Source: Amphiscolops sp. MND2022 (lineage: Eukaryota). From it: a DNA stretch of 64,000 nucleotides. The DNA lies in the NCBI GenBank assembly GCA_964187785.1, contig OZ076409.1:57910001-57974000 (forward strand), in the 5' to 3' direction. The notes under the pieces are model-generated. The model did no database searches and was not told the origin of the DNA. It saw only the letters and a program-made list of their open reading frames with translations. Shown here piece after piece: positions 4,491-51,236 of this stretch (positions within the stretch are counted from its first letter, which is position 1; each line of letters begins with the position of its first letter). The position numbers were made by a program, and so were the translations under genes.

Positions 4491-4615
4491 TTAACAAAAA
4501 AATACTAAATTTTTCAAATTGCGCTCAGGCTATCTTTTTCAGTTGTTTTAAGTCCTGAAATGAGTTTTTGCATCATTAAGGCCAAGTTTTGAGCTTTTCA
4601 TTTTCGTCGCGTTAA

Positions 4616-28699: not shown

Positions 28700-30330
28700 T
28701 GAAATGAATGATTATAACATTCTTCATCTCAGCCTCGTAGTTGATCTTTGGATCGGAGTATGAGTTTCTTGACTCCTTCTGTTGTTGAGAAAATCCTGAG
28801 AACAATAACTTGTAATTCCGTCCTAATTCGGAAGATGTTATATCGACTTCACCAGAAAAATGCAAAGCCACCTGATGTTGATTATGGCGGTGTTCAAGCG
28901 AACTGTTGTCCACGGGCCCACAAATTGACGACCAGAGAATGATCGTCTACACCATTCAACCACTTTTGGATAACCTAAAAAAACGTGAAACCTTGAATTG
29001 CGATGGAACGTTTGAAGCTGTGCAACTTCTAACATACCAACTCTACACCATTCACGAGTTGGTTGGCCATATAGCTCCGCCATTACTATTTACATTGTTA
29101 CCTAATAACAACTCAGGAACGAGAAAAATCGGCGTTTTATCCAAGGCTCAAACAGCTCAAAATTTTCAAAATTGTAAGAGGGGGACCCTTTGGGCTTTTT
29201 GAAACTTCAGTTTGTTGTAAAATATGAAAAGAAAGAGGGGACCCTTAGGAGACAATAAATAATTTTGAAGAAAAAACAAGAATCGAGAATTTGAACAGTT
29301 TCACTGTGCCGAAAAAAAAGGACCCTTTGTGTTCTTCATTATACATTCTATTGCAGAATTCAATGGGGAACTTTAGTGCATTCCAAAACTTTTCTCATAG
29401 TATCGAAAATAACTCAAGTGAAAACGACCAAGCTAGCCAAAAGGCGCTCCTTAGTATGTTTTCGAAGTTCTGTTCGTCTGTTGTTTTGGTTTGAACGAGG
29501 TTCTGACGTTTCATGTATGTTTTGAATGTCCGTAGTTCAAGTTGTTGTAGTTGAACAAATGAACAAAACATGGATCTTCTGAAAAAAAATCCAACTGTCA
29601 CAGTCGGGCAGTGTTTTTCAAAAGAGCTCCGATTGAAAACACACTGTGCTATGACACAATTTTGCACTACTGGTGCTGTTCAAAAATTTTGCTCTTAAAC
29701 ATGTCCGAAGGTCAGCTTGACCGATTTCGAGAAAGCAACTATCGACACGTTTGGCAAATCGTTTCCCCTAGCAACCCTCGGTGGTTGCCAATTTTTATCT
29801 ACCTCAAGCAAAAGCTCAAGCGGAATTTGAACGAATAAGGATTGAAACACAATTAGAACAACGAAAACATTTCCTAATACGAGTGAAGTTTTTGCAAGCT
29901 CTGAGCTTCATGTCCGAACTATACTATTGTTATACTTTTAGTATGAGTGCAGTAGTTTTTCAACCAGTATTTTATGAGTGCTTCAAACTGCTTAGTTGCA
30001 ACTTTGAAGACGATGAATTAACTGTGCTCAATTGTTTTGAACGCGTACTTATATCGACACAAACGATTCTCAATCAAAAGAAAGACTGCAGCAGCAGAAT
30101 AGATTTGAATTTTCAAAATTGCGAAACGAATCACTGCGGAGGTTGGCATGCCAGATTGAATTCAGTTTGCTATGGCAGTAATCAAATGAAATCAAAGATG
30201 GGTCTGGTCCGTTTGGATTCAAGTAATTACCAAACCGGCGGCAAACGAAAACTGAGTTCGTATGTAAAAATTCCACAAAAAGCTGCAAAACCTTTGCCGG
30301 AGCAAAGTACCAAACTCAGATGACAAAAAA
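28700..30330 (+). pseudogene. MULE (Mutator-like) transposase relic, interrupted by a repeat insertion
   Basis: CDGTF...YQLYTIH...P.LFTLLPN at ~28995-29105 and TNHCGGWHARLN at ~30125-30165 resemble MULE DDE-domain motifs. Many stops. Confidence 0.65.
29107..29640 (-). repeat. Reverse-oriented copy of the interspersed repeat family, inserted in the MULE relic
   Basis: Begins with a sequence homologous to the reverse complement of 1975-2018. The right boundary is approximate. Confidence 0.5.
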
Positions 30331-32915
30331 TAGAGCTTGAAATCGTTTGCAAATCTTTTTTCAAAATGTCTTGAAAGTGTTTTTTTGTGAGTTTGTGACT
30401 TTATTCATAATTCATATCGATTAGAAGATTTGAATTTCGAGATTATATCCAAAACATTCATATTACGAACTTTACAGGTGGTTACATTCTCCCCCACAGC
30501 AGATTTTTCTCAATTCCTGCTTCGATTGCTCTCGGAACTGAGTGATCTGTCCTTCGTAGTGTTTGTCAGTCCTTCAAAATTTTATGACCAAAGTCAGTAA
30601 ACCATCATTGGTACGAGAACTTTTTCCGGATAAAGTTGAAAATCGGAGGCTTTGTATTACTTTTTTCCGTTATACAAAACAAGACAATGAAAAATTTCAT
30701 CATAACTGCTTCATTAACATTTTTTCTTATCAATTTGTTTCATCAGGTAGCAATGCATTGTAAACATTTATCGAAAAAAATCATTGTGTCAATTCAAACT
30801 CCCAAAAAAATTAAAAAAATTGAATCTCGTTAGAACATGAAAAAATTCAGGTTGATTCAAGCTTTCACTGTGCTTTTTGTTTACTCACTTTTTCTCATAC
30901 GCTTACCAAGTGACTCACTTACGATTGACTTTACGCGAGGTGTATTACGACGAAAGTTCTCACGTCGAACTTCCCGACGATGAATTTTTTGACGACGAAA
31001 TTTCCGGTTTGCAGCTGTAAATCTGCTTGTTATGAAAATATTTTTGGAGTGGCTTCAAGATTCTTGTAAAAAAGTGTCAATTGATTCGGAAACAGTTTCT
31101 TACTAGTCTCGAACGTTTCCCTTGACACCTTTTCGTTGCCTACTTGCAATTCTCAGGAGAAGTTTTTGCTTTGAGAATTCACGACTGAAATTATCACAGC
31201 AGAAACAAAATCTTGTTTTGAATCGGCACTTTTTGCAGAACCAAAATGCCCGTCTCTTACAATATTTCTTTTTTTTCTTCAGACCACAGACCTCACACTG
31301 AAAAGTCCACTTTCCACCGAATTTCTGAATTTGAAAACAAAATTGAAACCGAAATAGTTCGTCCACTCAATTTTTGGTTTTAATGGTTTTCTGTTAAAGA
31401 AATTAGTTTTCGAAGCCTTAAGGGTTATAATTTTGGTTGTTTTTGGGAACTGTGTGATTGTTAAGAGCCTTCTTATACCTCTGGAAAAAACCTACAGTTG
31501 TTTCGACATTCAGTGAACTTTTTCGACGTTGTGAGAAAAACTGGAATTTCAGTTAGAAAAAGGTTTGAGTCTTATGAGTATCCATTCGGGTACTTTTTGG
31601 CTCTGTAAATGTGATACAATTTTGACAATAGTGTACCTTTCTAATTTGTAAAAAGTCTTTCCTTGAGAAGTGCTTGGGACTATGAGACTTTGTTTAAAAG
31701 AAAAAAGACGAATATTTGAACATATAAGTTTTCCTGATGTTTTCAGTTTAGAAAAAGTTTTTCAAGTCTCAAAAATATCCCATGGGTATTTTTTGGCACT
31801 GTAAGATAATCGAAAAGTTCAATAGTTGGCCCCTGAATTTTCCAAAAACGTTACTCTTTTTGAATTTTTTGCGTGGCGCCTACTTGGACCGTTCCCGGTC
31901 TGTTCAAAACTTGTATCGAAGCATAGACATCACAGATCAAATGTGACAGACAATATGCGACGTAGCATGGTCAAAAATGAAAACTATTTATTTTGCTGAA
32001 GTTTCGAATGATTTCGAGTTGTTTTTTAAATTAAAAAAGTCTGAAACAAACTTTTGTCACAAGTTTGAGAAAAATGTGATAACTATTGGGGATAATTAGT
32101 ATGATCATGTTTGCATTTTTCATTAGGCAGTATTTTAAACCCTATAATGAACTAAAAATTCCAACGTTATGTTTCTTGTTGTGGCTATATGGAATGACAA
32201 TTTACTTTTAAAAAGATTTTCGAAAGTTTTTTGTATCTGAGGATCAAGACTAAACTGACTATTCTGGGATCTTATTGACCAAGTTTGCCAAACTAACAAT
32301 TCATCTGACTTCGATTACCGAGCAGAATGACTGAAACAATAGGTTTCTTCGAGAGTTGCTTGTTTACGAAAAGTTCTATATTTCTTGGAAACTGAAAATT
32401 GGGAACATCTTGGTCTGAAATCATCCTTTCATAATAATAAACCGTACATAACATTTTTCAATGAGAAAAGTGAAAGAAAGGGTACGATGAAACAACTATT
32501 GCACCCATTTTGCAACAATTGGGTATTTTCTTCCGACTATAAAAAATATTATGATGACTTTTATATGGAAACATACTTTTCTTGTTCAACTATTCAAAAA
32601 CCTTTGATATTTTCCAGTGTTTCTATTTTTGAGTGTTTCAAAACCTCTACGAATTTCGGAATGCACGTACTTCAAAACTAGATCAAACTCCTTCGATGTA
32701 TACAATCAAAATCAGCTCAACATTTACTTCTGCGCTTGAATGCAATAAGATTATAGTAGTAAGCGAATTCCCGTTCCTGATATAAGAAAAAATTTAAGTT
32801 TGTAAAACCATTGAAAAATTAATCTTTTTTCACAAAATACCAATCAAATCATTAAAAATTAGCCTTTTTTCACAACTAAAAAAAATTAACAAAATTGATG
32901 AAAAATAACTATTAA

Positions 32916-33311
32916 ATGAATTATTTATCATTCAAAGAATTTGTTAATAAATATGGATTAAAAAATGAAGCAACTTCCAATGTAGAAATAAAAGAAATCC
33001 TAAAACTCATGAACACATCTTGTGGAATATATATGAGAGATGATAAATTTATAACCACCAGTGGTATAGTTAACTTACATCCAACTAAAGGAACACATTG
33101 GGTTATGTTTACAAACCAAAACTATTTCGATTCATATGGCTGTCCACCACCACTAAATATAACAAAACAAATTAATAATGGTATCTATTCAGAATATCAA
33201 ATCCAGAAAGACGACAGTTATTGTGCAGCATATTGTTTGTATGTGTTGTATCTCACAAATATAATTGGCTTCAAAAATGCAGTTTTAAATTTATACTACC
33301 AAAATTTATAA
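32916..33311 (+). CDS. Adenain-like cysteine (maturation) protease, left arm, intact
   Basis: GTHWV...YFDSYG...QIQ...YCAAYC motifs (His/Asp/Gln/Cys) typical of Maverick PRO. Confidence 0.88.
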   Translation: MNYLSFKEFVNKYGLKNEATSNVEIKEILKLMNTSCGIYMRDDKFITTSGIVNLHPTKGTHWVMFTNQNYFDSYGCPPPLNITKQINNGIYSEYQIQKDDSYCAAYCLYVLYLTNIIGFKNAVLNLYYQNL

Positions 33312-33318
33312 TTCCTAA

Positions 33319-33501
33319 ATGAAGAAAATAAATAATTATTCAGCTCAATTTGAAATTATTCAAAAACCAATGAATACCAATGAGAATCAATTTGATGAGA
33401 AAATAATAGAAAAAAATAATCAAAAAAAGAAATTATCAAAACAAAACCAAGAATTCATAAATAGGATATCCGCAAGTGGATTTAAACAATTTTTCTCCTA
33501 A
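33319..33501 (+). CDS. Small hypothetical Maverick ORF (60 aa)
   Basis: Packed tightly between PRO and the minor capsid gene. Its ATG is mutated in the right-arm copy (~40610-40792). Confidence 0.4.
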   Translation: MKKINNYSAQFEIIQKPMNTNENQFDEKIIEKNNQKKKLSKQNQEFINRISASGFKQFFS

Positions 33502-33504
33502 TAA

Positions 33505-34551
33505 ATGGATCTATCAAATTTTGTAACCTATGATAAAAAAGAATCTTTTTTGTTGAGTATTGCAAAATCTAATCAAGAAATTGATGAAAATACACATTCT
33601 AAACCACAAGAAACTCTAGAATTTAAAATGAATTAACAGAAGAATCTTTTTCATTTGATATTCCTTTGGAATTGCCTGAACAATGCATGATGGGAGTAAC
33701 AAGTTTAGAAGTATATAACACTGTATATAACATTACTGAAAAGAATAATAAAATTAAACTTTTTGAAACAGACAAAATGTTAAAAGAATATAAAGTTGCC
33801 ACTGAATTTATGTCAAAGATAAAAAAAATATATGAAACCTCCGGCAATAAAGGAATTTCTAATATAGAAGAAATTAAAAAACTTATAAATGATGATTATT
33901 TTAAAAAGGTTACACTTTCTGAAAATTATTATGACAATTTAAATAAAATAATTGATCAAATTAACCAAAATATTAAAGATAAAACAAAAATTATTGTTCT
34001 TGAAGAATATAGAATTGTAACTGATTGCTTGGAAATAGAAATACCACCAGGAGCATATGAATTAATCGATATAAATAATGCCATCCAACAAGAACTTATT
34101 AATTCTTGTAGTTCTGGTCCTGATCCTAAGTTTAAAATCAACATAGAGGCAGATACAATATCAATGAAATCAGTTTTAACAACCTCATATTCCATTTATT
34201 TTCATTCTGAACTTAACACCCTTTTAGGATTTACAAACAAGGGCTACTCAGCAGGAACTCATATATCAGAAAAACCAGTTATGATAACAACCACCGACAA
34301 AGTTCACCTTAAATGTGATTGTGTAGATGGATCAATTGTTAACGGGATTAGAGAACAAATTTTATTTTCTTTTAATCTTAGTGCTCCTCCTGGATATAAA
34401 ATTATAAAAGAACCCAATATTATTTTATATAAAAAAAATTAACAAAACAAGGTTAGATAGTATTCAATTTTTCCTTGAGGATAACAATCATAACCCAGTT
34501 GATTTCAACTCCGAAACATTAACATTTACAATTCAAATCATCAAGATTTAA
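33505..34551 (+). pseudogene. Minor capsid (penton-like) protein, left arm, frameshifted
   Basis: SLEVYNTVYNIT...IPPGAYE...LGF...CDCVDGSIVNG...PPGYKI..EP, and the reconstructed C-terminus LEDNNHNPVDFNSETLTFTIQI, resemble Maverick mCP. Frameshifts near 33630 and 34435. Confidence 0.75.
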
Positions 34552-34563
34552 TCCTGATAAATA

Positions 34564-34963
34564 ATGAGCTTTAGTAAATTTGAAAATAATTCATATTGTG
34601 TTGGTGGAAAACATTATTCCGCTACCACAAATATTCGTGGAGATATTACTCAAAATAAAAAAACAGGAGCACCTGTTAAATTATTAAGAGGTACTTGTTC
34701 AACTTGTAAAAGAAATAAATCACTTATAGTATCTGATCAAACAATTCAAGCAGAGGGATTGGGTAATTTTTTTAAACATTTGGGCTCGGCAGCCAAAAAC
34801 GTTGGAAAGAAAATACTCAATAACCCACGCCGTGCATTGGAAATAGCAGCAAATATTGGAACTGCAGCAGCAAGTAAAAATCCTCGAATGATAGCTGCAA
34901 CTGCTCCTGATATTATAAAATTTGTTCATCAAGGAAGGTCTGTACCTGGGTAAAATTCATTGA
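34564..34963 (+). CDS. Maverick accessory protein: N-terminal YC..CxxC small domain plus amphipathic GLGNFFKHLGSAAKNVGKKIL helix
   Basis: ORF 34564-34953. A small deletion near the 3' end relative to the right arm, whose copy ends GKGLYLGKIH. Confidence 0.6.
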
Positions 34964-35012
34964 TTTACAGCCTTGCTGTAAATTAAATATTATTTTTTAT
35001 GAATAATAAGTT

Positions 35013-35970
35013 ATGTATTCAATTCATAATCGAGATGATTTAGAAAAATTAAAAAAAATTGCAAGAAACAAAATCTTCTTTGAAAGCTGAAAGATTAAAA
35101 GAGAAACTAGGGAAGCAAGACTTTCATTATGATATGGAAGAAGTTTTTGAACCAGTTACTGAAAATCAGAAAAAAAGCCCAAACCAAACCAAGCTAGAAT
35201 CTGAAAAGCAGATTCAAGCACTACGTGATTCTACCCAAACTACAACACAAGCAATACAAGACCAAACTAGAGCAATACAAGAATCGAGTAATACTCTTAA
35301 TAAAAAATTACATAATTCAGTTAAAGAAGGAATACAAGAATATGATAAAATTACAAATCGTAATAATCAAACTGTTACAGATCTTGTTAACTCAAACCAA
35401 GTTGATTCTAGTATCGTTAAGACAGTTTCTAATTTGCTTAATGACAACAACAAAAGTCAATTTAGTTTAGAACCCGTGGAAGGAAGTTCTAATTTATTCA
35501 CAATTAACCCCCATAATCCCCAACAAGTACTAATCAAAGGTTCAACGATGACATTCCAAAATGGTAACACTTATTATTTGAATGATCCGGATCTTTCAAA
35601 GTTTATAACGAATATACAAATAGATAAAATACCACAAAATACGAATATAATTTACAGTTTTTTAAATGATATGAAATATAATATAAATTATGGAGATAAA
35701 AAATCACATAGATATTTTTTTATTAAAGCTATGTTACAACCACAAATAGGAAGTGGATTAAATTTTATTTTCCTTCCATCTGATCCAGATGAACTTGTAG
35801 ATCAATTAAAACTACTTTATTTTGAAAAAGTAGGAGGAAATGATAATCCTATGCTTAATGAACAAATCATAGCAATTGCAGATAAACTTTTACAATACCA
35901 ATGCATTACAACAAATCAACATCAAAACCTAGTAAGCACATTTACTAAAAAGGATCAGTTTGTGGATTAA
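35013..35970 (+). pseudogene. Maverick conserved coiled-coil protein, left arm (5' frameshift in an A-run)
   Basis: Mirror of the intact 318-aa ORF at 38143-39099. Confidence 0.7.
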
Positions 35971-36916
35971 ATATCTGGTATTGCAGATTGGATTCATTAC
36001 ATATCATATACTTACTCCCATTTTTATCTTCTAACCTATTTATTAACAAATAATTATACTTATCCCGCCATGCTTCTTTACACAAACTTTTGAATTCATC
36101 ATAAGACATATCAAAACCAGCTATGTCGGTGTATATATGTTGCACATCTTTCAATGTTTGTTGGAAAAAAAATATAATATTACTATTGTTTCTAATTGTT
36201 CTTTTAGGCAAATCAAAGTATGACTGTGATAAATAATAAACATCTAAATCATTATGTCTTCCTCTAGTAAATATGGATCTATTAATTTCTGTGAAGTGTC
36301 CAACATATCATCAAATACAACACAACAATTTTGAAAATCTTGTATTGTTCTATCTTCTAGATCTTCCTCCACTGAAATACAGCTTTCCTGGCCTTCGGTA
36401 TCTTCTATTTCTGTATTTGTATTCCAGAGGGCAGCTTCGCTGTATTGTCCCGGAGATCTAGTTATTATATGTATTTGTTTTTCTTTATCATATAATCGAA
36501 TTAATTGTAATTTGTTTAATAACAAATGGGTCTTACCACAAAATGATGGGCCAACTATCAATGTCCTATTACAATTATTGTCAATATTATCATTTGTAAG
36601 GATATTATTTGTATAATTATTATTATCATAATTTTCATTATGATTTATAATTTCATTATTTGTGTAATTATTATTATCATGATTGATAATACATCTTTTT
36701 AAATGTTTTGATAATTAAATTTTATTGAATTCCTTATTACAAAATTCACATTTTACTTTTTTTATTGAAACAATCTATACATGTACTGTACAATTTACCA
36801 TTTTTATATTTGTAAAGATCTGTTTTCAATATTTTACACACTTTACATCTTTTTTTATTCTCACAATCGGAACAGACTGATTTTTCATTACATTTTCCAC
36901 AAATTAAACACTTCAT
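35945..36916 (-). pseudogene. A32/FtsK-like packaging ATPase, left arm, frameshifted
   Basis: Mirror of 37146-38168, split into fragments by indels and lacking one 51-bp repeat unit. Confidence 0.85.
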
Positions 36917-36924
36917 TTATTTAG

Positions 36925-37140
36925 TAAAAAATCACTAAATCACTAAGCAAACTCACTAAGAGCATGATGTTTCAAGTGTAACTTATTTGCTTAGTGACAA
37001 AAAAATGCTCTTAGTAAATTTGCTTAGTGATTTTACTAAGAAAATTACTAAGAGCATTTTTTTGTCACTAAGCAAATAAGTTACACTTGAAACATCATGC
37101 TCTTAGTGAATTTGCTTAGTGATTTAGTGATTTTTTACTA
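36925..37140. repeat. Central nested-hairpin region (symmetry axis of the palindrome)
   Basis: Repeated CTTAGTGA/TCACTAAG motifs. Arm pairing extends to 37017/37045 around an imperfect inner stem CTTAGT-gatttt-ACTAAG (37023-37040). Confidence 0.85.
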
Positions 37141-37145
37141 AATAA

Positions 37146-38168
37146 ATGAAGTGTATAATTTGTGGAAAATGTAATGAAAAATCAGTCTGTTCCGATTGTG
37201 AGAATAAAAAAAGATGTAAAGTGTGTAATATATTGAAAACAGATTTTTACAAATATAAAAATGGTAAATTGTATAGTACATGTATAGAATGTTTCAATAA
37301 AAAAGTAAAATGTGAATTTTGTAATAAGGAATTCAATAAAACTTATATATCAAAACATTTAAAAAGATGTATTATCAATCATGATAATAATAATTACAAA
37401 AATAATGAAATTATAAATCATAATGAAAATCATGATAATAATAATTATACAAATAATGAAATTATAAATCATAATGAAAATTATGATAATAATAATTATA
37501 CAAATAATATCATTACAAATGATAATATTGATAATACTTGTAATAGGACATTGATAGTTGGCCCATCATTTTGTGGTAAGACCCATTTGTTATTAAACAA
37601 ATTACAATTAATTCGATTATATGATAAAGAAAAACAAATACATATAATAACTAGATCTCCGGGACAATACAGCGAAGCTGCCCTCTGGAATACAAATACA
37701 GAAATAGAAGATACCGAAGGCCAGGAAAGCTGTCTTTCAGTGGACGAAGATCTAGAAGATAGAACAATACAAGATTTTCAAAATTGTTGTGTTGTATTTG
37801 ATGATATGTTGGACACTTCACAGAAATTAATAGATCCATTTTTTACTAGAGGAAGACATAATGATTTAGATGTTTATTATTTATCACAGTCATACTTTGA
37901 TTTGCCTAAAAGAACAATTAGAAACAATAGTAATATTATAATTTTATTTCAACAAACATTGAAAGATGTGCAACATATATACACCGACATAGCTGGTTTT
38001 GATATGTCTTATGATGAATTCAAAAGTTTGTGTAAAGAAGCATGGCGGGATAAGTATAATTATTTATTAATAAATAGGTTAGAAGATAAAAATGGGAGTA
38101 AGTATATGATATGTAATGAATCCAATCTGCAATACCAGATATTTAATCCACAAACTGATCCTTTTTAG
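37146..38168 (+). CDS. A32/FtsK-like DNA packaging ATPase with N-terminal CxxC zinc-finger-like region, right arm, intact
   Basis: Walker A GPSFCGKT, Walker B VVFDD, RGRH motif, YLSQSY and IRNN motifs. Asn-rich 17-aa repeat linker. Confidence 0.9.
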   Translation: MKCIICGKCNEKSVCSDCENKKRCKVCNILKTDFYKYKNGKLYSTCIECFNKKVKCEFCNKEFNKTYISKHLKRCIINHDNNNYKNNEIINHNENHDNNNYTNNEIINHNENYDNNNYTNNIITNDNIDNTCNRTLIVGPSFCGKTHLLLNKLQLIRLYDKEKQIHIITRSPGQYSEAALWNTNTEIEDTEGQESCLSVDEDLEDRTIQDFQNCCVVFDDMLDTSQKLIDPFFTRGRHNDLDVYYLSQSYFDLPKRTIRNNSNIIILFQQTLKDVQHIYTDIAGFDMSYDEFKSLCKEAWRDKYNYLLINRLEDKNGSKYMICNESNLQYQIFNPQTDPF

Positions 38169-39099
38169 TAAATGTGCTTACTAGGTTTTGATGTTGATTT
38201 GTTGTAATGCATTGGTATTGTAAAAGTTTATCTGCAATTGCTATGATTTGTTCATTAAGCATAGGATTATCATTTCCTCCTACTTTTTCAAAATAAAGTA
38301 GTTTTAATTGATCTACAAGTTCATCTGGATCAGATGGAAGGAAAATAAAATTTAATCCACTTCCTATTTGTGGTTGTAACATAGCTTTAATAAATAAATA
38401 TCTATGTGATTTTTTATCTCCATAATTTATATTATATTTCATATCATTTAAAAAACTGTAAATTATATTCGTATTTTGTGGTATTTTATCTATTTGTGTA
38501 TTCGTTATAAACTTTGAAAGATCCGGATCATTCAAATAATACGTGTTACCATTTTGGAATGTCATCGTTGAACCTTTGATTAGTACTTGTTGGGGATTAT
38601 GGGGGTTAATTGTGAAAAAATTAGAACTTCCTTCCACGGGTTCTAAACTAAATTGACTTTTGTTGTTGTCATTAAGCAAATTAGAAACTGTCTTAACGAT
38701 ACTAGAATCAACTTGGTTTGAGTTAACAAGATCTGTAACAATTTGATTATTACGATTTGTAATTTTATCATATTCTTTTATTCCTTCTTTAACTGATTTA
38801 TGTAATTTTTTATTAAGAGTATTACTCGATTCTTGTATTGCTCTAGTTTGGTCTTGTATTGCTTGTGTTGTAGTTTGGGTAGAATCACGTAGTGCTTGAA
38901 TCTGCTTTTCAGATTCTAGCTTGGTTTGGTTTTGGCTTTTTTTCTGATTTTCAGTAACTGGTTCAAAAACTTCTTCCATATCATAATGAAAGTCTTGCTT
39001 CCCTAGTTTCTCTTTTAATCTTTCAGCTTTCAAAGAAGATTTTGTTTCTTGCAATTTTTTTAATTTTTCTAAATCATCTCGATTATGAATTGAATACAT
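38143..39099 (-). CDS. Maverick conserved protein (318 aa), right arm, intact
   Basis: QIGSGL motif followed by FLPSDPDELVDQLKLL...GNDN...NEQIIAIADKL, a C-terminal module I recall from Maverick/adintovirus ORFs. Overlaps the ATPase 3' end by 26 bp. Confidence 0.7.
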   Translation of the reverse strand: MYSIHNRDDLEKLKKLQETKSSLKAERLKEKLGKQDFHYDMEEVFEPVTENQKKSQNQTKLESEKQIQALRDSTQTTTQAIQDQTRAIQESSNTLNKKLHKSVKEGIKEYDKITNRNNQIVTDLVNSNQVDSSIVKTVSNLLNDNNKSQFSLEPVEGSSNFFTINPHNPQQVLIKGSTMTFQNGNTYYLNDPDLSKFITNTQIDKIPQNTNIIYSFLNDMKYNINYGDKKSHRYLFIKAMLQPQIGSGLNFIFLPSDPDELVDQLKLLYFEKVGGNDNPMLNEQIIAIADKLLQYQCITTNQHQNLVSTFTKKDQFVD

Positions 39100-39148
39100 A
39101 ATTTATTATTCATAAAAAATAATATTTAATTTACAGCAAGGCTGTAAA

Positions 39149-39549
39149 TCAATGAATTTTACCCAAGTACAGACCTTTTCCTTGATGAACAAATTTTATA
39201 ATATCAGGAGCAGTTGCAGCTATCATTCGAGGATTTTTACTTGCTGCTGCAGTTCCAATATTTGCTGCTATTTCCAATGCACGGCGTGGGTTATTGAGTA
39301 TTTTCTTTCCAACGTTTTTGGCTGCCGAGCCCAAATGTTTAAAAAAATTACCCAATCCCTCTGCTTGAATTGTTTGATCAGATACTATAAGTGATTTATT
39401 TCTTTTACAAGTTGAACAAGTACCTCTTAATACTTTAACAGGTGCTCCTGTTTTCTATTTTGAGTAATATCTCCACGAATATTTGTGGTAGCGGAATAAT
39501 GTTTTCCACCAACACAATATGATTTATTTTTAAATTTACTAAAGCTCAT
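39149..39549 (-). pseudogene. Right-arm copy of the amphipathic-helix accessory ORF (frameshifted)
   Basis: Mirror of 34564-34963 with a 1-nt deletion near 39455. Confidence 0.65.
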
Positions 39550-39561
39550 TATTTATCAGGA

Positions 39562-40606
39562 TTAAATCTTGATGATTTGAATTGTAAATGTTAATGTTTC
39601 GGAGTTGAAATCAACTGGGTTTTGATTGTTATCCTCAAGGAAAAATTGAATACTATCTAACCTTGTTTTTTTATTTTTTTATATAAAATAATATTGGGTT
39701 CTTTTATAATTTTATATCCAGGAGGAGCACTAAGATTAAAAGAAAATAAAATTTGTTCTCTAATCCCGTTAACAATTGATCCATCTACACAATCACATTT
39801 AAGGTGAACTTTGTCGGTGGTTGTTATCATAACTGGTTTTTCTGATATATGAGTTCCTGCTGAGTAGCCCTTGTTTGTAAATCCTAAAAGGGTGTTAAGT
39901 TCAGAATGAAAATAAATGGAATATGAGGTTGTTAAAACTGATTTCATTGATATTGTATCTGCCTCTATGTTGATTTTAAACTTAGGATCAGGACCAGAAC
40001 TACAAGAATTAATAAGTTCTTGTTGGATGGCATTATTTATATCGATTAATTCATATGCTCCTGGTGGTATTTCTATTTCCAAGCAATCAGTTACAATTCT
40101 ATATTCTTCAAGAACAATAATTTTTGTTTTATCTTTATTATTTTGGTTAATTTGATCAATTATTTTATTTAAATTGTCATAATAATTTTCAGAGAGTGTA
40201 ACCTTTTTAAAATAATCATCATTTATAAGTTTTTTAATTTCTTCTATATTAGAAATTCCTTTATTGCCGGAGGTTTCATATATTTTTTTTATCTTTGACA
40301 TAAATTCAGTGGCAACTTTATATTCTTTTAACATTTTGTCTGTTTCAAAAAGTTTAATTTTATTATTCTTTTCAGTGATGTTATATACAGTGTTATATAC
40401 TTCTAAACTTGTTACTCCCATCATCCATTGTTCAGGCAATTCCAAAGGAATATCAAATGAAAAAGATTCTTTTTGTTTATTCATTTTAAATTCTAGAGTT
40501 TCTTGTGGTTTAGAATGTGTATTTTCAACAATTTCTTGATTAGATTTTGCAATACTCAACAAAAGAGATTCTTTTTATCATAGGTTACAAAATTTGATAG
40601 ATCCAT
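39562..40606 (-). pseudogene. Minor capsid protein, right arm (301-aa core open, homopolymer frameshifts at both ends)
   Basis: Mirror of 33505-34551. Confidence 0.75.
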
Positions 40607-40837
40607 TTATTAGGAGAAAAATTGTTTAAATCCACTTGCGGATATCTTATTTATGAATTCTTGGTTTTGTTTTGATAATTTCTTTTTTTGATTATTTTTT
40701 TCTATTATTTTCTCATCAAATTGATTCTCATTGGTATTCATTGGTTTTTGAATAATTTCAAATTGAGCTGAATAATTATTTATTTTCTTCTTTTAGGAAT
40801 TATAAATTTTGGTAGTATAAATTTAAAACTGCATTTT

Positions 40838-41526
40838 AAATGCTCCACAAGGGAATTTTAACTGGCCCCTAATGTATTATTTTTTGTATTATTATTACCT
40901 ATTTGTATGTTTTAACTTTTTCGAAAATTTAAGGATTTTTAATATTTGGTGAAAACGGAGGATTTTATATACACGCTATCAAAAAACCTAATGCGATTTA
41001 TTAGGATTTCTAATAAATAACCCCATTATAAGGATTTCTTATACTACTGTCAAGTATAAGTTATACTATTTCCGCGGAGAACATATAGACAAACAGTATT
41101 TCTTATACACAAAAAGGATTCATTATACACAAATAGGATTTCATATACTAATATTTAGTGATCCTAATAAAATATACTATATTTGAAATCAGGAATTCTA
41201 AGAATACTCGCAAATCGTATAAGGAATCCTATTTTAATAAAATTTCAAGCGCATTAGGATTATTAATACAAAGTATCAAGAATACTTATTTTGATTATTA
41301 GTAAAACTTATAAAATGGGGGAAAAGTTTTTGAGTCCTTAGTATACAGTTTATAAGGAATCCTGAAAACAGTTAGATATAAGGAAACTTGATACATTTCC
41401 CATGCATTAACAAGTGGAAAAAGTATCAGTAATACTTATACTTCAATGCAAATTGGCTTATAAGGAATACTTATGCATTTTAGACACGTAAATTTATGCG
41501 CACTTTGAAAGTTGTGTCTTGTAATG
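40838..41526. other. ~690-bp AT-rich insertion unique to the right arm
   Basis: Absent from the left arm. Flanked by a 23-bp direct duplication (40815-40837 / 41527-41549, one mismatch). Rich in AGGATT/AGGAAT motifs. Confidence 0.8.
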
Positions 41527-41535
41527 GTATAAATT

Positions 41536-41907
41536 TTAAACTGCATTTTTGAAGCCAATTATATTTGTGAGATACAACACATACAAACAATATGCTGCAC
41601 AATAACTGTCGTCTTTCTGGATTTGATATTCTGAATAGATACCATTATTAATTTGTTTTGTTATATTTAGTGGTGGTGGACAGCCATATGAATCGAAATA
41701 GTTTTGGTTTGTAAACATAACCCAATGTGTTCCTTTAGTTGGATGTAAGTTAACTATACCACTGGTGGTTATAAATTTATCATCTCTCATATATATTCCA
41801 CAAGATGTGTTCATGAGTTTTAAGATTTCTTTTATTTCTACATTGGAAGTTGCTTCATTTTTTAATCCATATTTATTAACAAATTCTTTGAATGATAAAT
41901 AATTCAT
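41536..41907 (-). CDS. Adenain-like protease, right arm (C-terminally truncated by 8 aa)
   Basis: Same translation as the left copy until a TAA at the insertion junction. Confidence 0.8.
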   Translation of the reverse strand: MNYLSFKEFVNKYGLKNEATSNVEIKEILKLMNTSCGIYMRDDKFITTSGIVNLHPTKGTHWVMFTNQNYFDSYGCPPPLNITKQINNGIYSEYQIQKDDSYCAAYCLYVLYLTNIIGFKNAV

Positions 41908-44900
41908 TTAATAGTTATTTTTCATCAATTTTGTTAATTTTTTTAGTTGTGAAAAAAGGCTAATTTTTAATGATTTGATTGGTATTTTGTGAAAAAAGAT
42001 TAATTTTTTAATGGTTTTACGAACTTAAATTTTTTCTTATATCAGGAACGGGAATTCGCTTACTACTGATTATTGCCCGTACTGATGGACCATTGTCTCA
42101 GGAGTGTGTAATGGAGTCTTACTCAAGTTTTTTCTGTAGGCTTTACAATTTTTTAGTTTTTCATCTTCGAGTGCCGTCCGATATCCAAGTGTTTCGCCCG
42201 GTATTGGGACACTGTTGACCTCTAAGGGGGATAGCTGTGACCTCGAATCGAACTTCGTGTTATCTTTCACGAGTGTACTTAAGACTCTAAAATTGGAAGC
42301 AATCTATTTGATGCTGACAGTTTTAAAAGTCGTCATTTGTTTTTTAAGCTACACCTAATAATACTAGGTTACCCCAAAGAAACAATACAAGTGAAATTTC
42401 ACATATTTGAGGGCTTAATTGTTCAAGAGAAAGACATCGAAACTCCTTTAAACTACATGTTGCCAATTGTCAATCACTGGAAACAGCACTCGACTCACTC
42501 ACAAAAATTACCTAATAAGTGAACTACATGACCGGTTGACTTACCTAATTGACCGTCTAGCTGAGATTATAGCTATTTTTATCCTTTCCATAATTGAGAG
42601 GCAGCAATTGAAAACTTCAAAGCATTTTGACTGACTTGTTTGTAAATAAAAATTAGGCGTTTTAAAAGAAAATGAAATACTGCTGATTTCGATGTCGCTC
42701 AGGTACTGCGGAGTGAAACCAATATCATGTTTTACTTTCATCATGGACTCATCTCAAAAATTTGATGGAATAATCTTGTTTGATAAATTTTGCAAGAGTG
42801 TACAGTATTCAATCTCTAGCCTATAGATAGGAACGTGTAAAGCAATAATTGGTTTAATCATAGGATATTTATCTAACTTCGTTATCTGAATGTTTATGTA
42901 GAACCAATAGATATTTCGAGTTCCACTTGTGTGAAATGACTGCTGCAAAAAATAACAAACAATTTTGAGAAGTATGTGAAAAAAACTCTTTGAAATTTGA
43001 AATTCAAAACAGTATTTTTAGGAATTTCTAAAAGGAGGATTTTCAGGAGGAATTTCTCCAGAAATTTAACAAAGCACTGTATCTTTATTTTCCGTAGATA
43101 TTTCATATGGAAAAGGAAAATATTTAAACCAAACAAGTTTTTTTTACAAAATTGCCGAGCACTAAATTTATATCCAAGCTAAAAAGTTTCACCCATTGAA
43201 TTCAACTGACGTAAATTTAGTAACATGCGGTATGTATTTGTGGAGATTGGTGGACTTTTTTGGTTGACCCGAAAGACCCCAAAATGACCCAAAAAATGAC
43301 TCCAAACATGAAAAAAACTGTAAAGTTTTCCGGTTTTTAACGTTTTCATAAATTTTTGTCAATATTTCGATAGATTTTGTGGTTTAGATTGTTGAAAACA
43401 TCCGAAAGGACAAATTTAAAACTTCGTTACCAAAGAGGTTTTTTAGCAGAAATAAAAGCATTTTTTAAATGAAAAAAGGCCTCAAATTCAGATCGAACTT
43501 GAAGAAAATTCCAAAAAGTTCAGATTTGTAACGTTTTTATTCATTTTTTGGTAAACTTTTGATACACTTGGTAGCTTAGAAAAGTAAAAACGTTCAAAAA
43601 GGAAAGAATTCGTTGTCCAAGAGGCTTCTTCGAAGACATAAACGCAATTTGTTTTGAAAAATGTCTCAAATTCAGACCGAAATGACAAAAACCAGGAAAA
43701 TAAACGTTTCCAATCACATTCTGACGCGTTTTGGAAGGACTTAATGGCTTAGAATGTTGAAGAGGTTCGAGATTGAAAGCGTTCATTATCCGGTAGGCTT
43801 TTTGTTAAGAAGTACAGACTGTTTTTCAAGAAAAAAACTCGAATTGCCATCAAAAGAATCAATTATCCACGTTTTCATGCCACTTTTGTCAAACTGTTTT
43901 TAAAAAAAGTAAGGCTTTTTGACTATTTTGTGGTCATTGTGGCAATTTGTTCTGCATTTATCTACCCAAACAACCCTATCGGACAACAACTTACTTTTTG
44001 AAAACAAATTTTGATTCTCCAAAGCAATTTCTTTAAAATTTTCAACGTTTCCAAGGATTACAACTCCTAAACTGTTAAACGACAAGTGAATGGGTTGTCC
44101 AGTAGGCTTTTTGAACGGATAAACGCCAGCTTCTGATAAAAATGTGCTTTAATTTGACACAAAAAGTGTCTAGAATTCCAAACAAATCCAGTTTATGTAG
44201 TTTCGTCAAATTTGTTAGTACAACTTTTGAAAATTTTTGCGAGTCAGAAGGTTAAAGACAATCAAAGTGAGCAAATCAGATTGTAACAATCATTGAACAG
44301 TCAAATGTAATAACTTTTTTTGTGAGAACATTACAGTGGTTTACGTGAGAAATACTGCAAAACGACACAAGTGAGTCGGAAACTAGAGAAATTGAAATTT
44401 TAAACGTTTTTGTGCGAAGTCTTTTTTTTCGAAACGTCTCCAGGGTTAGAACATTAGAATGGTTCAACAACAAATGCAGTTGATTTCGAGTGGACGTTTG
44501 TGGGAGGTATTTGCTGATTTGTGTCTGGTAAATGTCTCAATTTGAACCGAAAAAAAATAAAATATCGAACATTTCCCATTTTGACAAAAGAGATTTTTGT
44601 GAAGGTGTTCGTGAACTCGATGCTTCTAAAGCTCCAGACGAGATTTCAAGCTATGTAGTGCGTGTTCTGAAGAAAAACTTTGTAGTTTTCTTCGTAGAAA
44701 CTTATCTCAGAATGACCCATACGAAAAATGACTTTTGTGGGAATTTTCGTACATTAGAAGAATAAACTTTTCAACAGCAAACAAACGCAAATTAGAGTAA
44801 ATATTTTGGAATTCAAATGCAGTTTCATGTTTGAAAAGAGCATCAAAGTGACACCAAAAAAAAACTAAAAAGTAGATAGTTTTCAAAAATTTTTGACGTT

Positions 44901-46779
44901 TTTATCCCTTTTTTTCAAAATTTTGAAAATTTCGTGAATTAGAACTTTGAAACATCGAATCAACCATTGGATACAGGGTTCAGTAAAATTTCCGAAAAAA
45001 AATGGCAAGTTGTCATGTGAAATATGCCTCAATTTCAACCTAAACTATCAAAACACAAATCTTGCCAGTTTGTCATTTTTCCTGCAGTTTGTGTACACTT
45101 TTTTAACGTTTCTGTGTTAAAGAAAGCTCAAAACAGTCAAACACGAACAAATTAGCTATGCAGTATACTATTTTGAAGAAAGAGTTGCAGTTTTTTACTT
45201 CAAAAACCCTTCGAAAATGAGCCTGATGAGTCGGAAATGAAAAAAATCTAAATTAAAAGCTTTATTTTCAAGGGTCTATCGTCTTCCATCGTTGGAAGTT
45301 TCCATCGTAGGAAGAATGAAAACGTTCAACGTGAACAGATGCGTTATCCGGTCGGCTTTTTGAAGGTCAATTGCAGTTTCACGTTAGAAAAAGCCTCGAA
45401 ATGTCCCCAAAATAGAAAAAAAAATGGCAGTTATTTGACAAATTAGTGAATTTCTAACTTAAGTTGCCAAATTATTCGAACTTTTTTGAAATAGGCATGC
45501 AGATTGTTTATAAAAAGAAATTCACAATTTTGTATGTAGGAAGATCGTCAGGTTGACTTAAAATAATTTAAAAATCCTTTTTTTGTTTTGGAAATGTTTA
45601 TATACTTTTTTGTAAACCTTTCAAACAATTTTGCAATTCAAGAACGACTGGACCCTGCATCCAATCGATCTTTTTTAAAAACACATCTGCAGTTTCCTAA
45701 CAAAAAATCCTCAAATGACCCCAAAGTTGTCGAAAGAGCAAAATTGAGCAAATTTTGACGTTTTTGGCGACTTCGCGCAAAAAAAATTGATTGGTTAGGT
45801 TTTGGTATCCACACAAGCTGACAAAAAACAAGTAGGTGTTCAGTGTGTTCTTGAAGTGTTTCCTTCTGAAATGGGATGACATTATTCAAAAGTGTCAAAA
45901 CTTTTTCCGTCAAACTTCCATGCGTTTCCATAGTGGAATTCGCTCTTGAGCCTCAAAAATATGTCATTTTGGACAGAAAATTTCCTGCTGGTCAGCAGGC
46001 GTCTTGTTTTCGATCTTTTCTGGAAAAAACGAAAAAAAAATAACAGAGTTCTCATAATAAACGTCAACATGCATGGAAACGGCATGAAATTATCGTATGG
46101 AACCATATGGTTCCATGCATGGAATCGCATGGAAGACTTATAAATTTGGATCCGGGAAGAGTCTCGGAACTAACTAATAATCAGAATTATCAACCAGTTT
46201 TTCTGCGGCGATTTACTCCGATCAAGTAAGAAGCAGGCGGTGCTAAAGAATTAGGAAGTTAGGTAAAACTGAGCAAAATGGAACAAAGAAACTTTACGTA
46301 ACCAAACAAAATCCTATGGGAATGATATCCATCGCACTTGAAAACAAAATCATTCAAGGCACAATCTTCTGAACATCATACTTCAAATGATTTCAAATGT
46401 CTACGACTCTATTTCGAAAATGTTTACAAATTTATCGAAAAGGAAACCAGCTCTTTTTGTTGTGGATACAATTTCCTTAAAAATTGTCACGGATAAACCT
46501 CGACAATGTGAAGCTGCAGGCAATATCGAAAACGAAACGTCGTCAGACTGCTACTTCTTTCGAAGGGCCTGTTGATGAGGTAAGGGGTGAAAATCTCCAT
46601 GAGTCTTATTTTGGCAAACCTGAAGAACGAAAATTAACTGTTGAAAAGACAACAAGAAGCGAACAAGTTACTCCGAGCGTTCCAGTGAGCAGTTCCATCC
46701 AACCGAGTACAAGCGAACTTTCTTTTGACGCGGAGAATCTCTAATGCAAATGGCCCACCGAAAAAGGCACGCCAAAGAC

Positions 46780-46978
46780 ATCGCCAATCACAATACTTGA
46801 TTGCAACTTCGTGATTTCCCATGCCTTCAGTGATTTTCTAGGGCGCAGACATCGGTTTACAGGACCCTGAAAGATTTTATCTTTTTGGTACCAAAATTCT
46901 GTTTAACTTAATAGAAACATCACAGCAATGGCTCGCGGATGGCACTTTCTAGTTATTTTTGAGCCTCTGTTTTCAATC
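46780..46978 (+). pseudogene. MULE transposase relic (5' part; continues at 51552-51890)
   Basis: DPERFYLFGTK...SQQWLADGTF immediately before the gypsy insertion. Confidence 0.6.
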
Positions 46979-47288
46979 TGTCGTAAAGTGGTTTGAAAAG
47001 ATTTTGTTTTAAACTCAGTTCAATTCAGGTTCTCGTTTTATTTCTTTATGGTCCGTACAATACAGTAAAATAATATTCAAATTAATAGTTGACACCAGTT
47101 AAAATACAAGTCTATTATGTAAGAGTTTACTTGAGTTCTTTCACCGGTCATCGGTAACGCATATTGAAAGTTTCCATTCTTCGGTGTTATGTAACCGAAT
47201 CGCGGAGCCAATGAAATTGAAGTAGCTTCTTCGGTAACGAACGGTAGATGTTTACCGAATAACAGCAAGTGACGATGACGTCACCACA
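46979..47288 (-). repeat. 3' LTR
   Basis: Matches 51237-51546 with about 4 substitutions by eye. Confidence 0.95.
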
Positions 47289-47306
47289 TCCTCTCTTTTA
47301 GTTGAT

Positions 47307-48236
47307 TCATGCGAATCCTGCTTGATACTTCTGGGTTTGGGTTCGTAGTCGTTTCGGTCTATCATTGGTTATCGCGGTATGTTCTTCGGTCACCACCGGA
47401 TTCAAGTTATCAGCGTTACTAGTCTTCGGGGTGACTGGATCTTGAATAGCATCATGTCCAATGTTTGGTTGATGTTCCAGTTTCTTTGCGTCTGATGATG
47501 GTAGTGATGCGATTTGTCCGTCACTTGCCAAAATTGTTCGGTTGTTGTCATGAAGCCAAGCCGTGTTTCGTCCTTTCCGGATAATGTAAGTCAATTCTCT
47601 CGGCTCATGGTTTGAAGTGGGTTTGTACAGCACTTTTTCACCAACTTCATAAAATCCAACAACAGGGTTTCTCAAGTTTTTTCCAAGCAGTAATTTGGCA
47701 GGAGTGTCACCTCTAGCATTTGAAGAATTTCGATGACTGAACAAAATTTTATCAAAATAAGTAGTCAATGAACAACCTATATCTTTATTGTAAAAACTCA
47801 GGCTCTTTTTCAATGTTTGAACAGCTCTCTCGGCCAGTCCATTGCTTCTCGGTGAATACAAAGGTGTGTGAATCTTTTTGCATCCTTGTGCCGCCAACCA
47901 GTCTTTTAGGTCTTTGGATATAAACTCCTTTCCGTTATCGGACACAACCGTATATGGTATTCCAAACCGAGAAAAGATTGTTCGGAGACATCTGACCACG
48001 TTCCGCGTTGATCGGTCGGTGCACGGGAAAGCTTCCAGCCAACCGGACCCAGCATCAGCAATGATCAGAATGTTACCGTGTTCTGCTTCATAAAGCCAGT
48101 CCATATGCAGTCTTTCCCACGGAGCGCATTCTTCCCATTTGTCGGTAGAATCGATCAGTCTCGGTCGGTTTTTGCTGCATTCGGGACAGTTTTTGACAAA
48201 TTGTTCGATATCGTTGTCCATAAACGGCCAACGCAT
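47307..48236 (-). CDS. Integrase (DDE core), separated from RT/RH by a frameshift near 48240
   Basis: WERLHMD...VVSDNG...SNGLAERAV. Confidence 0.9.
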   Translation of the reverse strand: MRWPFMDNDIEQFVKNCPECSKNRPRLIDSTDKWEECAPWERLHMDWLYEAEHGNILIIADAGSGWLEAFPCTDRSTRNVVRCLRTIFSRFGIPYTVVSDNGKEFISKDLKDWLAAQGCKKIHTPLYSPRSNGLAERAVQTLKKSLSFYNKDIGCSLTTYFDKILFSHRNSSNARGDTPAKLLLGKNLRNPVVGFYEVGEKVLYKPTSNHEPRELTYIIRKGRNTAWLHDNNRTILASDGQIASLPSSDAKKLEHQPNIGHDAIQDPVTPKTSNADNLNPVVTEEHTAITNDRPKRLRTQTQKYQAGFA

Positions 48237-49863
48237 TCTTTTTCACCAAGTTTTTCAAAGCATTGATTCCTTGATGGACGTCGTGAAATTTTTCAATCAC
48301 TTGTTTTCGGCATGTAATTGGTATAAAAACTCTCGATCCATTATATATCAAGTCACTTTGTACTGTTAATGCATTTGAAACATTCAAAAAAGGTTTCTCC
48401 ATTTTGGTACAGTTTTTCCAATTACCGGTTCGGATTCGGTTCATCATCCGTTTTGAGAACTCATTCGATTGCATCTCTTTCCGTAACTTCTCGGCATCAA
48501 TCACGGGTTTCTCAAATGTAGCCATTGCTACCGCAACTAAGTCGTCTTCATCGTCTTTGAACCGTAAGCGTGACATTGCATCGGCATGACCAATATCCTG
48601 ACCGGGAGTGTATTGTACATCATAGTCATAGGCAATGAGGGTTATTGCCCATCGCGCAAGTCTCGCTGATACAACTTTCGGTATCTGGTTGCTCGGATTG
48701 AAGATATACTGTAGTGGCTTGTGATCTGTTCTAAGAGTGAACTTCCTCCCCAATAAAAATTGTCGAAGTCGTGTCACTGCGAATAATACAGCAAGCGCTT
48801 CCCGTTCAATGTAGCTGTATTTCTGTTCTGCCGATGTCAAGTTACAAGATATGTAGATAACCGGGTGATCATTCTGCGTCAATACACCATCAATGGTTTT
48901 TTCGGATACATCAGTTGTTAGAGTTACTTCTTTGTCCAATGTGTACGGTTGTACCAATGGTTCACATGTAAGCTCATCTACCAGTGACTGGAATGCCCTT
49001 TGACATTCATCGGTCCACGTGAAAGGTTTATCTTTTCGCCGGAGTTCATTTATACACCGCGTCTTGGCTGCATAGTTTGGAATCATTCGCCCAAAGTAGT
49101 TGATAGGTCCGATAAAAGCTTCAACTTCTTTGACATCCTTCGGTGGCTGCAGTTGAAGAAGTTTTTGAACGTGCTTCTGTTCCGGCTTTACTCCTTCCGA
49201 TGAATTTTCATAGCCCAAAAAGGAAAACGTTGTCGAGAATGATACGCACTTGTCTTCATTCACGGTGAAGTTCTTTGCTGCCAGCCGTTCTTTGACCGCA
49301 TTGTATCTTTTCCGGAGTTCGGCCTCGGTTACACCGAACAACAAGATATCGTCTTGATATGCGACGCAACCATCCAGTCCTTTGAGCACTTCTTCGATAG
49401 CTTGTTGGAAAATCGCCGCTGCATTTTTCAATCCTTGTTGTAACCGGGTGACTCGAAATAGGCCTCGGGTTGTATTCACTGTACACACATATTGCGATTT
49501 TTCATCAAGTGGCATTTGCCAATAAGCATTAGATAGATCAATTTTTGCAGAGAATTTAGCGCCTGAGACTTTTGAGAAATTGGTTTCAATACAAGGGAGG
49601 GGGTAGGCTTCGGTACTAATTTTATCATTTACGTGTACTTTATAGTCAGCACACATTCGTAGTTTATCACCTTTTTTCACCCACACAACCGGGGAACAAT
49701 TATCTACACCACCGGCTTCAACCGGTTCAAGAATTCCCAACAACAGTAATTCATCAATGGTTTTATTGACTTTCCGTTCAAGTGGCAACGGTACCTTCCG
49801 TGCCGCGCAAAACATTGGTTTAGCATCGGGTTTCAATTTAATGGAAGCTTTAGCACCTTTCAC
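48088..49863 (-). CDS. Reverse transcriptase / RNase H
   Basis: RMCADY, KIDLSNAYWQ, YQDD, TTDVS, EREALA, TDHKPL, ADAMSR. Confidence 0.93.
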   Translation of the reverse strand: MKGAKASIKLKPDAKPMFCAARKVPLPLERKVNKTIDELLLLGILEPVEAGGVDNCSPVVWVKKGDKLRMCADYKVHVNDKISTEAYPLPCIETNFSKVSGAKFSAKIDLSNAYWQMPLDEKSQYVCTVNTTRGLFRVTRLQQGLKNAAAIFQQAIEEVLKGLDGCVAYQDDILLFGVTEAELRKRYNAVKERLAAKNFTVNEDKCVSFSTTFSFLGYENSSEGVKPEQKHVQKLLQLQPPKDVKEVEAFIGPINYFGRMIPNYAAKTRCINELRRKDKPFTWTDECQRAFQSLVDELTCEPLVQPYTLDKEVTLTTDVSEKTIDGVLTQNDHPVIYISCNLTSAEQKYSYIEREALAVLFAVTRLRQFLLGRKFTLRTDHKPLQYIFNPSNQIPKVVSARLARWAITLIAYDYDVQYTPGQDIGHADAMSRLRFKDDEDDLVAVAMATFEKPVIDAEKLRKEMQSNEFSKRMMNRIRTGNWKNCTKMEKPFLNVSNALTVQSDLIYNGSRVFIPITCRKQVIEKFHDVHQGINALKNLVKKNALAVYGQRYRTICQKLSRMQQKPTETDRFYRQMGRMRSVGKTAYGLAL

Positions 49864-49911
49864 TGTTTGTAACTTTTCGGATACTTCTGCTTTGAAGCAC
49901 CGTTCAATGGA

Positions 49912-51102: not shown

Positions 51103-51236
51103 TTCAAAATTTCCACCGAACGAACTGAATATAATCTTCTCCCTTTCAATTGAAACGAAATAACGGTAAGAAATCTTCTGTTTCTTTAGCAATCAATTTT
51201 CAAATTTAAAGGAATTTCGGTGGTCTGGACACCATT

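Follow-up and report, generated by a model that had tools for sequence, protein, structure and literature searches.

The window analysed here is a 64,000-nucleotide stretch of the 1.07-Gb Amphiscolops sp. assembly (C1:57,910,001–57,974,000), and its subject is a palindromic Maverick derivative, hereafter P1. Comparison of the window with itself revealed a single large inverted duplication at positions 32755–42067, 9.3 kb in total, whose first letters are AGTAGTAAG and whose last letters are CTTACTACT, giving AGTAGT/ACTACT termini. The hexamer GATTAT abuts the element on both sides (32749–32754 and 42068–42073, plus strand), forming a 6-bp target-site duplication (TSD); the chance of a match for one given 6-mer is ~6e-4. 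The left arm (32755–37028, plus strand) measures 4,274 bp and the right arm (37035–42067, minus strand) 5,033 bp, and they join at a 6-nt loop (37029–37034), so that the structure is essentially spacer-free. At the outer end of each arm lies a family terminal repeat of ~150 bp, common to both ends of ordinary copies, which starts AGTAGT on the left (32755–32904, plus strand) and ends ACTACT on the right (41919–42067, minus strand). Self-comparison bears out the inverted arms, near-zero spacer, termini and TSD of the original prediction. The arm length of ~4.3 kb given there holds for the left arm; the right arm is longer because it contains a 689-bp fragment of a MITE (miniature inverted-repeat transposable element) that had been overlooked. 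Global alignment of the arms spans 4,269 columns with 4,218 matches and 51 substitutions (1.2%). The arms also differ by several 1–2-bp indels, by 51 bp within an Asn/His tandem unit, and by a block of 712 bp confined to the right arm.

The MITE fragment (40838–41526, right arm only) comes from a dispersed element of ~740 bp, with one end clipped, and is bracketed by 23-bp direct repeats (40815–40837 and 41527–41549); the 712-bp block consists of this 689-bp piece plus one copy of the 23-bp repeat. Identity to the fragment is 96.5–97.5% in seven further full MITE copies. Neither the left arm nor the ordinary Maverick copies compared contain the MITE, which was therefore inserted after the arms had formed. 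A deletion from the left arm was ruled out as the source of the 712-bp difference, since the segment is missing from ordinary copies. Terminal repeats in the MITE family begin CATTACAAG, with apparent 2-bp TSDs. At C7:22.65–22.69 Mb and C7:43.36–43.39 Mb, MITE halves (split near position 336) are separated by 32–33 kb, a spacing that suggests either a nested insertion or a long parent.

The six open reading frames (ORFs) predicted for each arm are present as homologous sequence, most of them broken in one arm or both. In the left arm, the protease (131 aa; 32916–33311, plus strand) and a 60-aa ORF without a family match (33319–33501, plus) are open. The remaining four are broken: a putative minor capsid gene (33505–34551, plus; near 33638 and 34440), a basic/amphipathic ORF of ~133 aa (34564–34965, plus; near 34935), a 318-aa ORF (35013–35970, plus; near 35051) and ATPase 1 (35945–36916, minus; near 36269 and 36757). 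The right arm has an open ATPase 1 (340 aa; 37146–38168, plus) and an open 318-aa ORF with no family assignment (38143–39099, minus); its protease (41524–41907, minus) is shortened near the C-terminus by the MITE, and its 60-aa ORF (40610–40792, minus) lacks a start codon. The right copies of the amphipathic ORF (39149–39549, minus; broken near 39455) and the putative minor capsid gene (39562–40606, minus; broken near both ends) are interrupted at sites that differ from those in the left arm. Nine small indels were found at the eight positions checked, every one arm-specific and none shared.

The ATPase label of the original prediction is upheld by motifs. ATPase 1 combines a Cys-rich N-terminus with Walker A, Walker B and RGRH motifs, Asn/His tandem units (37377–37526 in the right arm) and a terminase-ATPase profile match (E 2e-6); it has no Pox_A32 match. 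The adenain-type label of the protease has weak fold support: comparison of the predicted model (pLDDT 78) returned adenain/SENP/DUB-type cysteine proteases in the top rows, with best E-values of 0.04–0.05 and none below 0.001, and adenovirus proteinase at rank 2 (E 0.05, prob 0.90). A search of IMG/VR gave five distant protease relatives, and no long inverted repeat accompanies any of them. ENA assemblies contain near-identical proteases and capsid-like proteins; the contigs in question reach 1.1 Mb and are probably host DNA. The putative minor capsid protein belongs to a conserved ~345-aa family with no Pfam, PHROG or PDB match, and its name follows from gene position and the earlier label. 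A reading of the 60-aa ORF as the N-terminus of this capsid-like gene was rejected. Consulting PMC8502044 gave no names for the accessory ORFs, and a search of window positions 30000–45000 against Rfam gave no match.

The parent family and the central hairpin

The parent of P1 is a ~13.7-kb Maverick family of several hundred copies with the same termini. A 20-mer from its protease gene has 370 matches in the assembly (at most one mismatch); the exact 28-bp terminus has 77, including 22 facing pairs within 35 kb that are mostly 13–15 kb apart. The first half of the parent reads terminal inverted repeat (TIR), pPolB-like ORF, major capsid protein (MCP), two small ORFs, integrase, ATPase 2 and hairpin; after the hairpin come ATPase 1, the 318-aa ORF, the amphipathic ORF, the capsid-like ORF, the small ORF, the protease and the other TIR. 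The integrase ORF matches PF00665 (E 1e-10), the MCP ORF matches PF21738 (double jelly-roll major capsid, E 2e-21), and ATPase 2, which is absent from the palindrome, matches Pox_A32. A 984-aa polymerase-like ORF contains an endonuclease VII domain and has no PolB match in Pfam or the PDB; from its PolB motifs we take it to be pPolB. Ordinary copies are likewise flanked by 6-bp TSDs, and their TIRs are ~130–260 bp long in seven of eight end pairs and 329 bp in one rearranged pair. Across 27 aligned ends, no end-specific mark was found in the first ~140 bp of the terminal repeat. The family is mosaic, as if copies recombine during replication.

The arms of P1 match ordinary copies solely in their protease-side half: the 4.3 kb that run from hairpin to protease-side TIR are present twice. 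P1 retains TIRs with the (AGT)2 end motif, a 6-bp TSD, an adenain-like protease and a packaging ATPase. None of pPolB, integrase and MCP lies within the element, as the original prediction had noted; in ordinary copies all three are located beyond the point that forms the palindrome centre. Lacking them, P1 is not an autonomous Maverick. A family with the same termini and with pPolB, integrase and MCP, as the original prediction expected of a helper, does exist in the genome.

At the position of the palindrome centre, ordinary copies contain an imperfect stem of ~19 bp with a 6-nt loop, set inside a longer bulged hairpin. Of three stretches folded, L049 lacks the hairpin and was set aside, and copy L035 gave –16.9 kcal/mol (z –4.9); over 76 segments the median is –10.8. 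In the window, this hairpin (37009–37053) retains the loop and the stem mismatches of the parent, and the sequence passes into the inverted copy at the stem's outer end. Each of the 39 other loci scored matches one side of the centre only; of 14 such loci examined, 13 extend into ATPase 2 and integrase for the full 1.5 kb and the last for 350 bp. Since ordinary copies have a conserved hairpin at this very place, the fold-back that forms the junction took place at an inverted repeat that already existed. A palindrome of this junction type is what priming by fold-back from a short inverted repeat is expected to give (PMC7999016). A junction-specific pattern has the window as its sole match in the assembly, and a DNA search yielded no second complete junction among the 40 candidates scored out of 1,250. 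Movement as a palindromic unit, which the original prediction had raised, is unsupported: the central junction occurs once in the assembly, an outcome that the prediction itself had listed as arguing against mobility.

Two divergent FtsK/A32-type ATPases flank the conserved hairpin in the parent (L036:4–1029; window 37146–38168), and the hairpin contains several ACTAAG/CTTAGT motifs. Two other loci, L130 and L168, are ordinary internal-deletion derivatives in which the pPolB/MCP side is joined to a protease-side arm. At C8:62.85 Mb (L082/L083), two Mavericks lie with their protease ends facing, ~2.3 kb apart; at 80–84% identity they are separate insertions, and a palindrome was ruled out.

Other palindromes and repeats

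Two further palindromes of the protease side were found in the genome. P2 (C13:29,181,644–29,192,110; L078 and L079) has the TSD GAAGTG and arms 1.8% apart, which extend through most of ATPase 2 and enclose a 560-bp one-sided spacer. A second conserved hairpin, with a 9-bp stem and a 4-nt loop, lies where integrase and ATPase 2 diverge, between their start codons, and the centre of P2 holds this 4-nt loop in the flipped sense. The flipped sense occurs in 0 of 77 ordinary copies (85 matches minus 8 false); an apparent flip-flop of the loop among ordinary copies was rejected as a strand artefact of the search pattern. We infer that P2 arose by fold-back at the integrase/ATPase 2 hairpin and then lost sequence from one side of its centre by deletion. 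Revision of palindrome centres is known from work in mice. The P2 junction is unique in the assembly, with two mismatches allowed.

P3 (C7:~62,021,354–62,034,046; L080 and L081) has the TSD ATAACG and a different TIR subtype, a ~2.2-kb spacer reaching into integrase, and a 3.2-kb insertion in one arm. Its arms are mosaic, 92–97% identical, with patches of common alternative alleles. The left arm contains a 107-bp near-perfect local palindrome (L080:1477–1583).

P1, P2 and P3 represent three lineages with three junctions and three TSDs, and are not sisters of one another. They do not constitute a non-autonomous foldback family, in which one structure recurs in several copies with differing TSDs. 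The genome thus holds at least three fold-back derivatives, two of them centred on conserved intergenic hairpins. P1 and P3 were recovered as facing pairs among 200 of the 265 protease-motif matches listed, and P1 and P2 among the 22 facing TIR pairs, of which one 33-kb pair was left unchecked. The reciprocal, pPolB-side palindrome was sought among 128 of the 325 pPolB matches listed, with no facing pair found; in a crude table, the contrast between the two sides is nonsignificant (p 0.28).

Eighty further stretches contained one long internal palindrome, L140:178–1001 (C5:23.456 Mb). This 824-bp palindrome has halves that are 100% identical, a (TA)n run at its centre and a 200-N gap beside it; it is probably an assembly artefact and serves as an artefact control. 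The element that carries it is flanked by a 247-bp direct repeat and lacks a 6-bp TSD.

Elsewhere in the window, a Gypsy-like long terminal repeat (LTR) retrotransposon occupies 46976–51546 on the minus strand, with 313-bp LTRs 98.4% identical and matches to protease, reverse transcriptase, RNase H and integrase across three frames. A 598-bp direct repeat (3897–4494 and 4612–5209) is 100% identical, with a spacing of 117 bp. The segment 54000–64000 shows strong G and T skew at 43–47% GC, and its five ORFs of 166–277 aa have no Pfam match.

Origin of the palindrome

We consider it somewhat probable that P1 formed before or at integration, by a strand folding back at the hairpin. Synthesis would start at the protease-side terminus, displacing a strand. 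The nascent 3′ end, just beyond the hairpin, would anneal to the complementary stem of its own or the displaced strand and be extended back to the terminus. The resulting hairpin molecule would have a regenerated origin, and its opening would yield a linear duplex valid at both ends. A full-length relative would supply pPolB and integrase in trans, and the helper integrase would insert the palindrome once, after which both arms would decay and the MITE would enter the right arm. Of the snap-back by replicative template switching proposed in the original prediction, the part that stands is a fold-back Maverick derivative with sister arms; the choice between a free genome and the chromosome as the site of the event is weakly resolved.

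The timing was approached through the divergence of the arms, compared with 89 other rows and with an in-place control, a 4.9-kb direct tandem duplication of the protease-side half at C10:51.87 Mb (L068) whose copies are 2.1% apart. The P1 arms are sisters, 1.2% apart vs. 4.9–5.3% to the nearest of the 89 rows. Had the parent been resident in the chromosome before duplication, the arms should share neutral damage. Private states common to both P1 arms number four (one nonsynonymous, two synonymous and one non-coding), with no indels, and those common to both copies of the tandem duplicate number 12 (five nonsynonymous, three synonymous, one stop and three non-coding). Shared private changes between sibling copies at separate loci are mostly synonymous (10 synonymous to 3 nonsynonymous in the best pair), and singletons of ordinary copies show 4.5 nonsynonymous changes per synonymous one. 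The pattern in P1 appears to resemble that of separate-locus siblings, unlike that of the in-place tandem duplicate. The lack of shared indels and the presence of only four shared private substitutions mildly favour formation before or at integration over in-place repair. Also speaking for that reading are the junction within a hairpin stem of ordinary copies, the recurrence of such palindromes in other lineages with other junctions, the inverted chimeras that phi29 polymerase makes at short complementarity (PMC1855051) and the mosaicism of the family. Divergence of ~0.6% per arm, and singleton loads of 0.27% and 0.10% vs. a median of 0.53% in 82 ordinary copies, place P1 among the younger insertions.

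Several observations weigh against formation before or at integration. The counts are small: if the shared substitutions are neutral, zero shared indels has P ~0.07. Shared vs. arm-private singletons are 4 vs. 11 and 4 in P1 and 12 vs. 17 and 21 in the tandem control, a ratio close enough that it fails to separate the two. P2 arms share seven private states (six nonsynonymous, one synonymous) and two small deletions, one of them inside the capsid-like gene, as expected of an already decayed template; on these changes, the template of P1 looks as if it was undecayed when copied and that of P2 as if decay had already set in, and P2 looks more like the product of an in-place route. The left arm of P1 carries 33 polarised substitutions vs. 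14 in the right (p 0.008), an asymmetry that lies outside the predictions of the favoured model, and changes in P2 and in the C10 tandem pair are symmetric. A synonymous excess among left-arm singletons (6 of 12, p 0.012) became less marked, at 7 of 25, once all polarised differences were included. No free or replicating molecule was observed. Lastly, an ordinary copy on C12 (17.035–17.049 Mb; L094:132–248, L095:921–1030) holds its own right flank, inverted, in its left end, which reads 9 bp of TIR, ~108 bp of inverted host right flank and then the full TIR, all within a GGGGGC TSD. End-to-end template switching therefore does occur in the chromosome in this Maverick family.

We regard in-place repair as possible but on the doubtful side. 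An inserted Maverick would suffer a break in its pPolB half and be resected to the hairpin; the 3′ end would fold back, host polymerase would copy the protease half, and the new strand would rejoin at the far TIR, with the TSD kept. Fold-back priming at short inverted repeats near breaks is established in yeast and mammalian cells (PMC7999016), the terminal repeats offer ~150 bp of homology for the last step, and, because nothing fixed in their first ~140 bp distinguishes one end from the other, such a rejoining would be traceless. The neutral-looking changes and two deletions shared by the P2 arms fit this route, as do the in-place inverted switch between the ends of the C12 copy and the single-copy state of each palindrome tested (P1 and P2). 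However, shared indels are absent from the P1 arms and their shared private substitutions are few and mostly silent, so that an in-place event would need to have come soon after insertion; and the differences between the arms are spread along them, with no excess in the terminal repeats.

The left-right asymmetry would be accounted for if the arms came from two close siblings, through an intermolecular switch or a hairpin crossover, the partners being either co-replicating genomes or a younger donor and a copy already resident. The mosaic arms of P3 and the mosaicism of the whole family lend this some appeal, but it is improbable for P1: among the 89 rows there is no sibling closer than ~5% over the arm, none is closer than 97% in the best 40 matches to the capsid-like region, and only 5 of the 49 P1 arm differences involve common alleles, without patches. 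A mobile palindromic satellite, spreading as a unit with helper proteins, could exploit the fact that both P1 ends are valid family termini; the unique junctions of P1 and P2 and the lack of a sister relationship among the three palindromes make this very unlikely. Least credible of all is a fold-back chimera of assembly or amplification. The same assembly does include the artefact-like palindrome L140, but that one differs in being 100% identical, (TA)n-centred and gap-adjacent, whereas the P1 arms are 1.2% apart, with a one-sided MITE, dissimilar flanks and a TSD at both exact termini in an N-free window, and two further palindromes have TSDs of their own. The left flank of P1 matches the assembly at one place, so that no second haplotig with the site empty came to light. 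Under formation before or at integration, P1 is likely a dead-end by-product of Maverick copying and not a spreading satellite.

Relation to known systems and significance

Snap-back genomes of adeno-associated virus (AAV) and adenovirus, and hairpin or palindromic deletion derivatives of yeast pGKL linear plasmids, are helper-dependent molecules in which one end is inverted and duplicated, giving two origins. P1 shares the defining features of a snap-back or defective genome, being rearranged from its parent, keeping both origins and lacking the replication genes, and by analogy it may be compared to a snap-back defective genome of a Maverick. The viral and plasmid derivatives are free and amplified, whereas P1 is one integrated, decaying copy, and in this assembly the junction, found once, gives no sign of helper amplification as a unit.

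In vertebrate Mavericks, intact TIRs span 46–1,447 bp, element sizes are 12.7–24.6 kb and the end motif is (AGT)2 or (AG)3 (PMC8097293). P1 has the same (AGT)2 motif, 6-bp TSD, protease and ATPase as autonomous Mavericks, but its inverted repeat of 4.3 kb makes up nearly all of it, and it lacks pPolB, integrase and MCP. The parent family has the full Maverick module, and its ~13.7 kb falls at the low end of the reported size range. The string "palindrom" is absent from the main text of PMC8097293 (supplements aside), and a literature search at title and abstract level, with subscription papers and supplements largely outside it, returned no report of half-genome palindromic Mavericks. Butterfly polintons have ~2-kb TIRs that duplicate hexon and adenain (bioRxiv 10.1101/2025.02.07.637071). 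P1 is like them in that core virion genes including adenain are duplicated, inverted, at the two ends; they are full-length and recently mobile with a unique interior, whereas P1 has no interior and no replication module and is single-copy. The short terminal palindromes described in protist virophages and polinton-like viruses (10.64898/2026.07.28.741278) are a different structure from P1.

At the level of mechanism, P1 is like the fold-back palindromes of PMC7999016 in that its junction lies within an existing short inverted repeat and the loop is kept. Those palindromes are chromosome-scale, whereas the P1 duplication ends exactly at the element terminus and the host flanks are intact. In vitro, phi29 polymerase gives 85% inverted chimeras, primed on 2–21 nt of complementarity (PMC1855051); the likeness lies in a strand-displacing polymerase of the protein-primed family and inverted joins at short complementarity, the difference in that these arise during in vitro amplification and not in a natural replicon.

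Maverick replication itself is a model, drawn from the termini and from analogy with adenovirus and tectivirus (PMC8097293). Recurrent half-genome palindromes, folded at conserved hairpins and flanked by clean TSDs, are a trace that can be counted, left either by template switching during strand displacement or by fold-back repair in the host. These two routes differ in their population-level predictions at a single locus, and the question is therefore testable by sequencing alone. Palindromes also provide a way for ordinary TIRs of ~150 bp to become gene-bearing TIRs of several kb. Tentatively, and with rather less confidence than for the origin of P1 itself, we propose that animal Mavericks, as they replicate by protein-primed strand displacement, routinely shed snap-back genomes at their own intergenic hairpins, and that these are integrated by helpers. 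If this is true, the palindromes, at ~1% of copies, would be fossil replication intermediates and sequence evidence on how Mavericks replicate, and snap-back genomes would be the starting point for gene-bearing long TIRs and for palindromic Maverick satellites.

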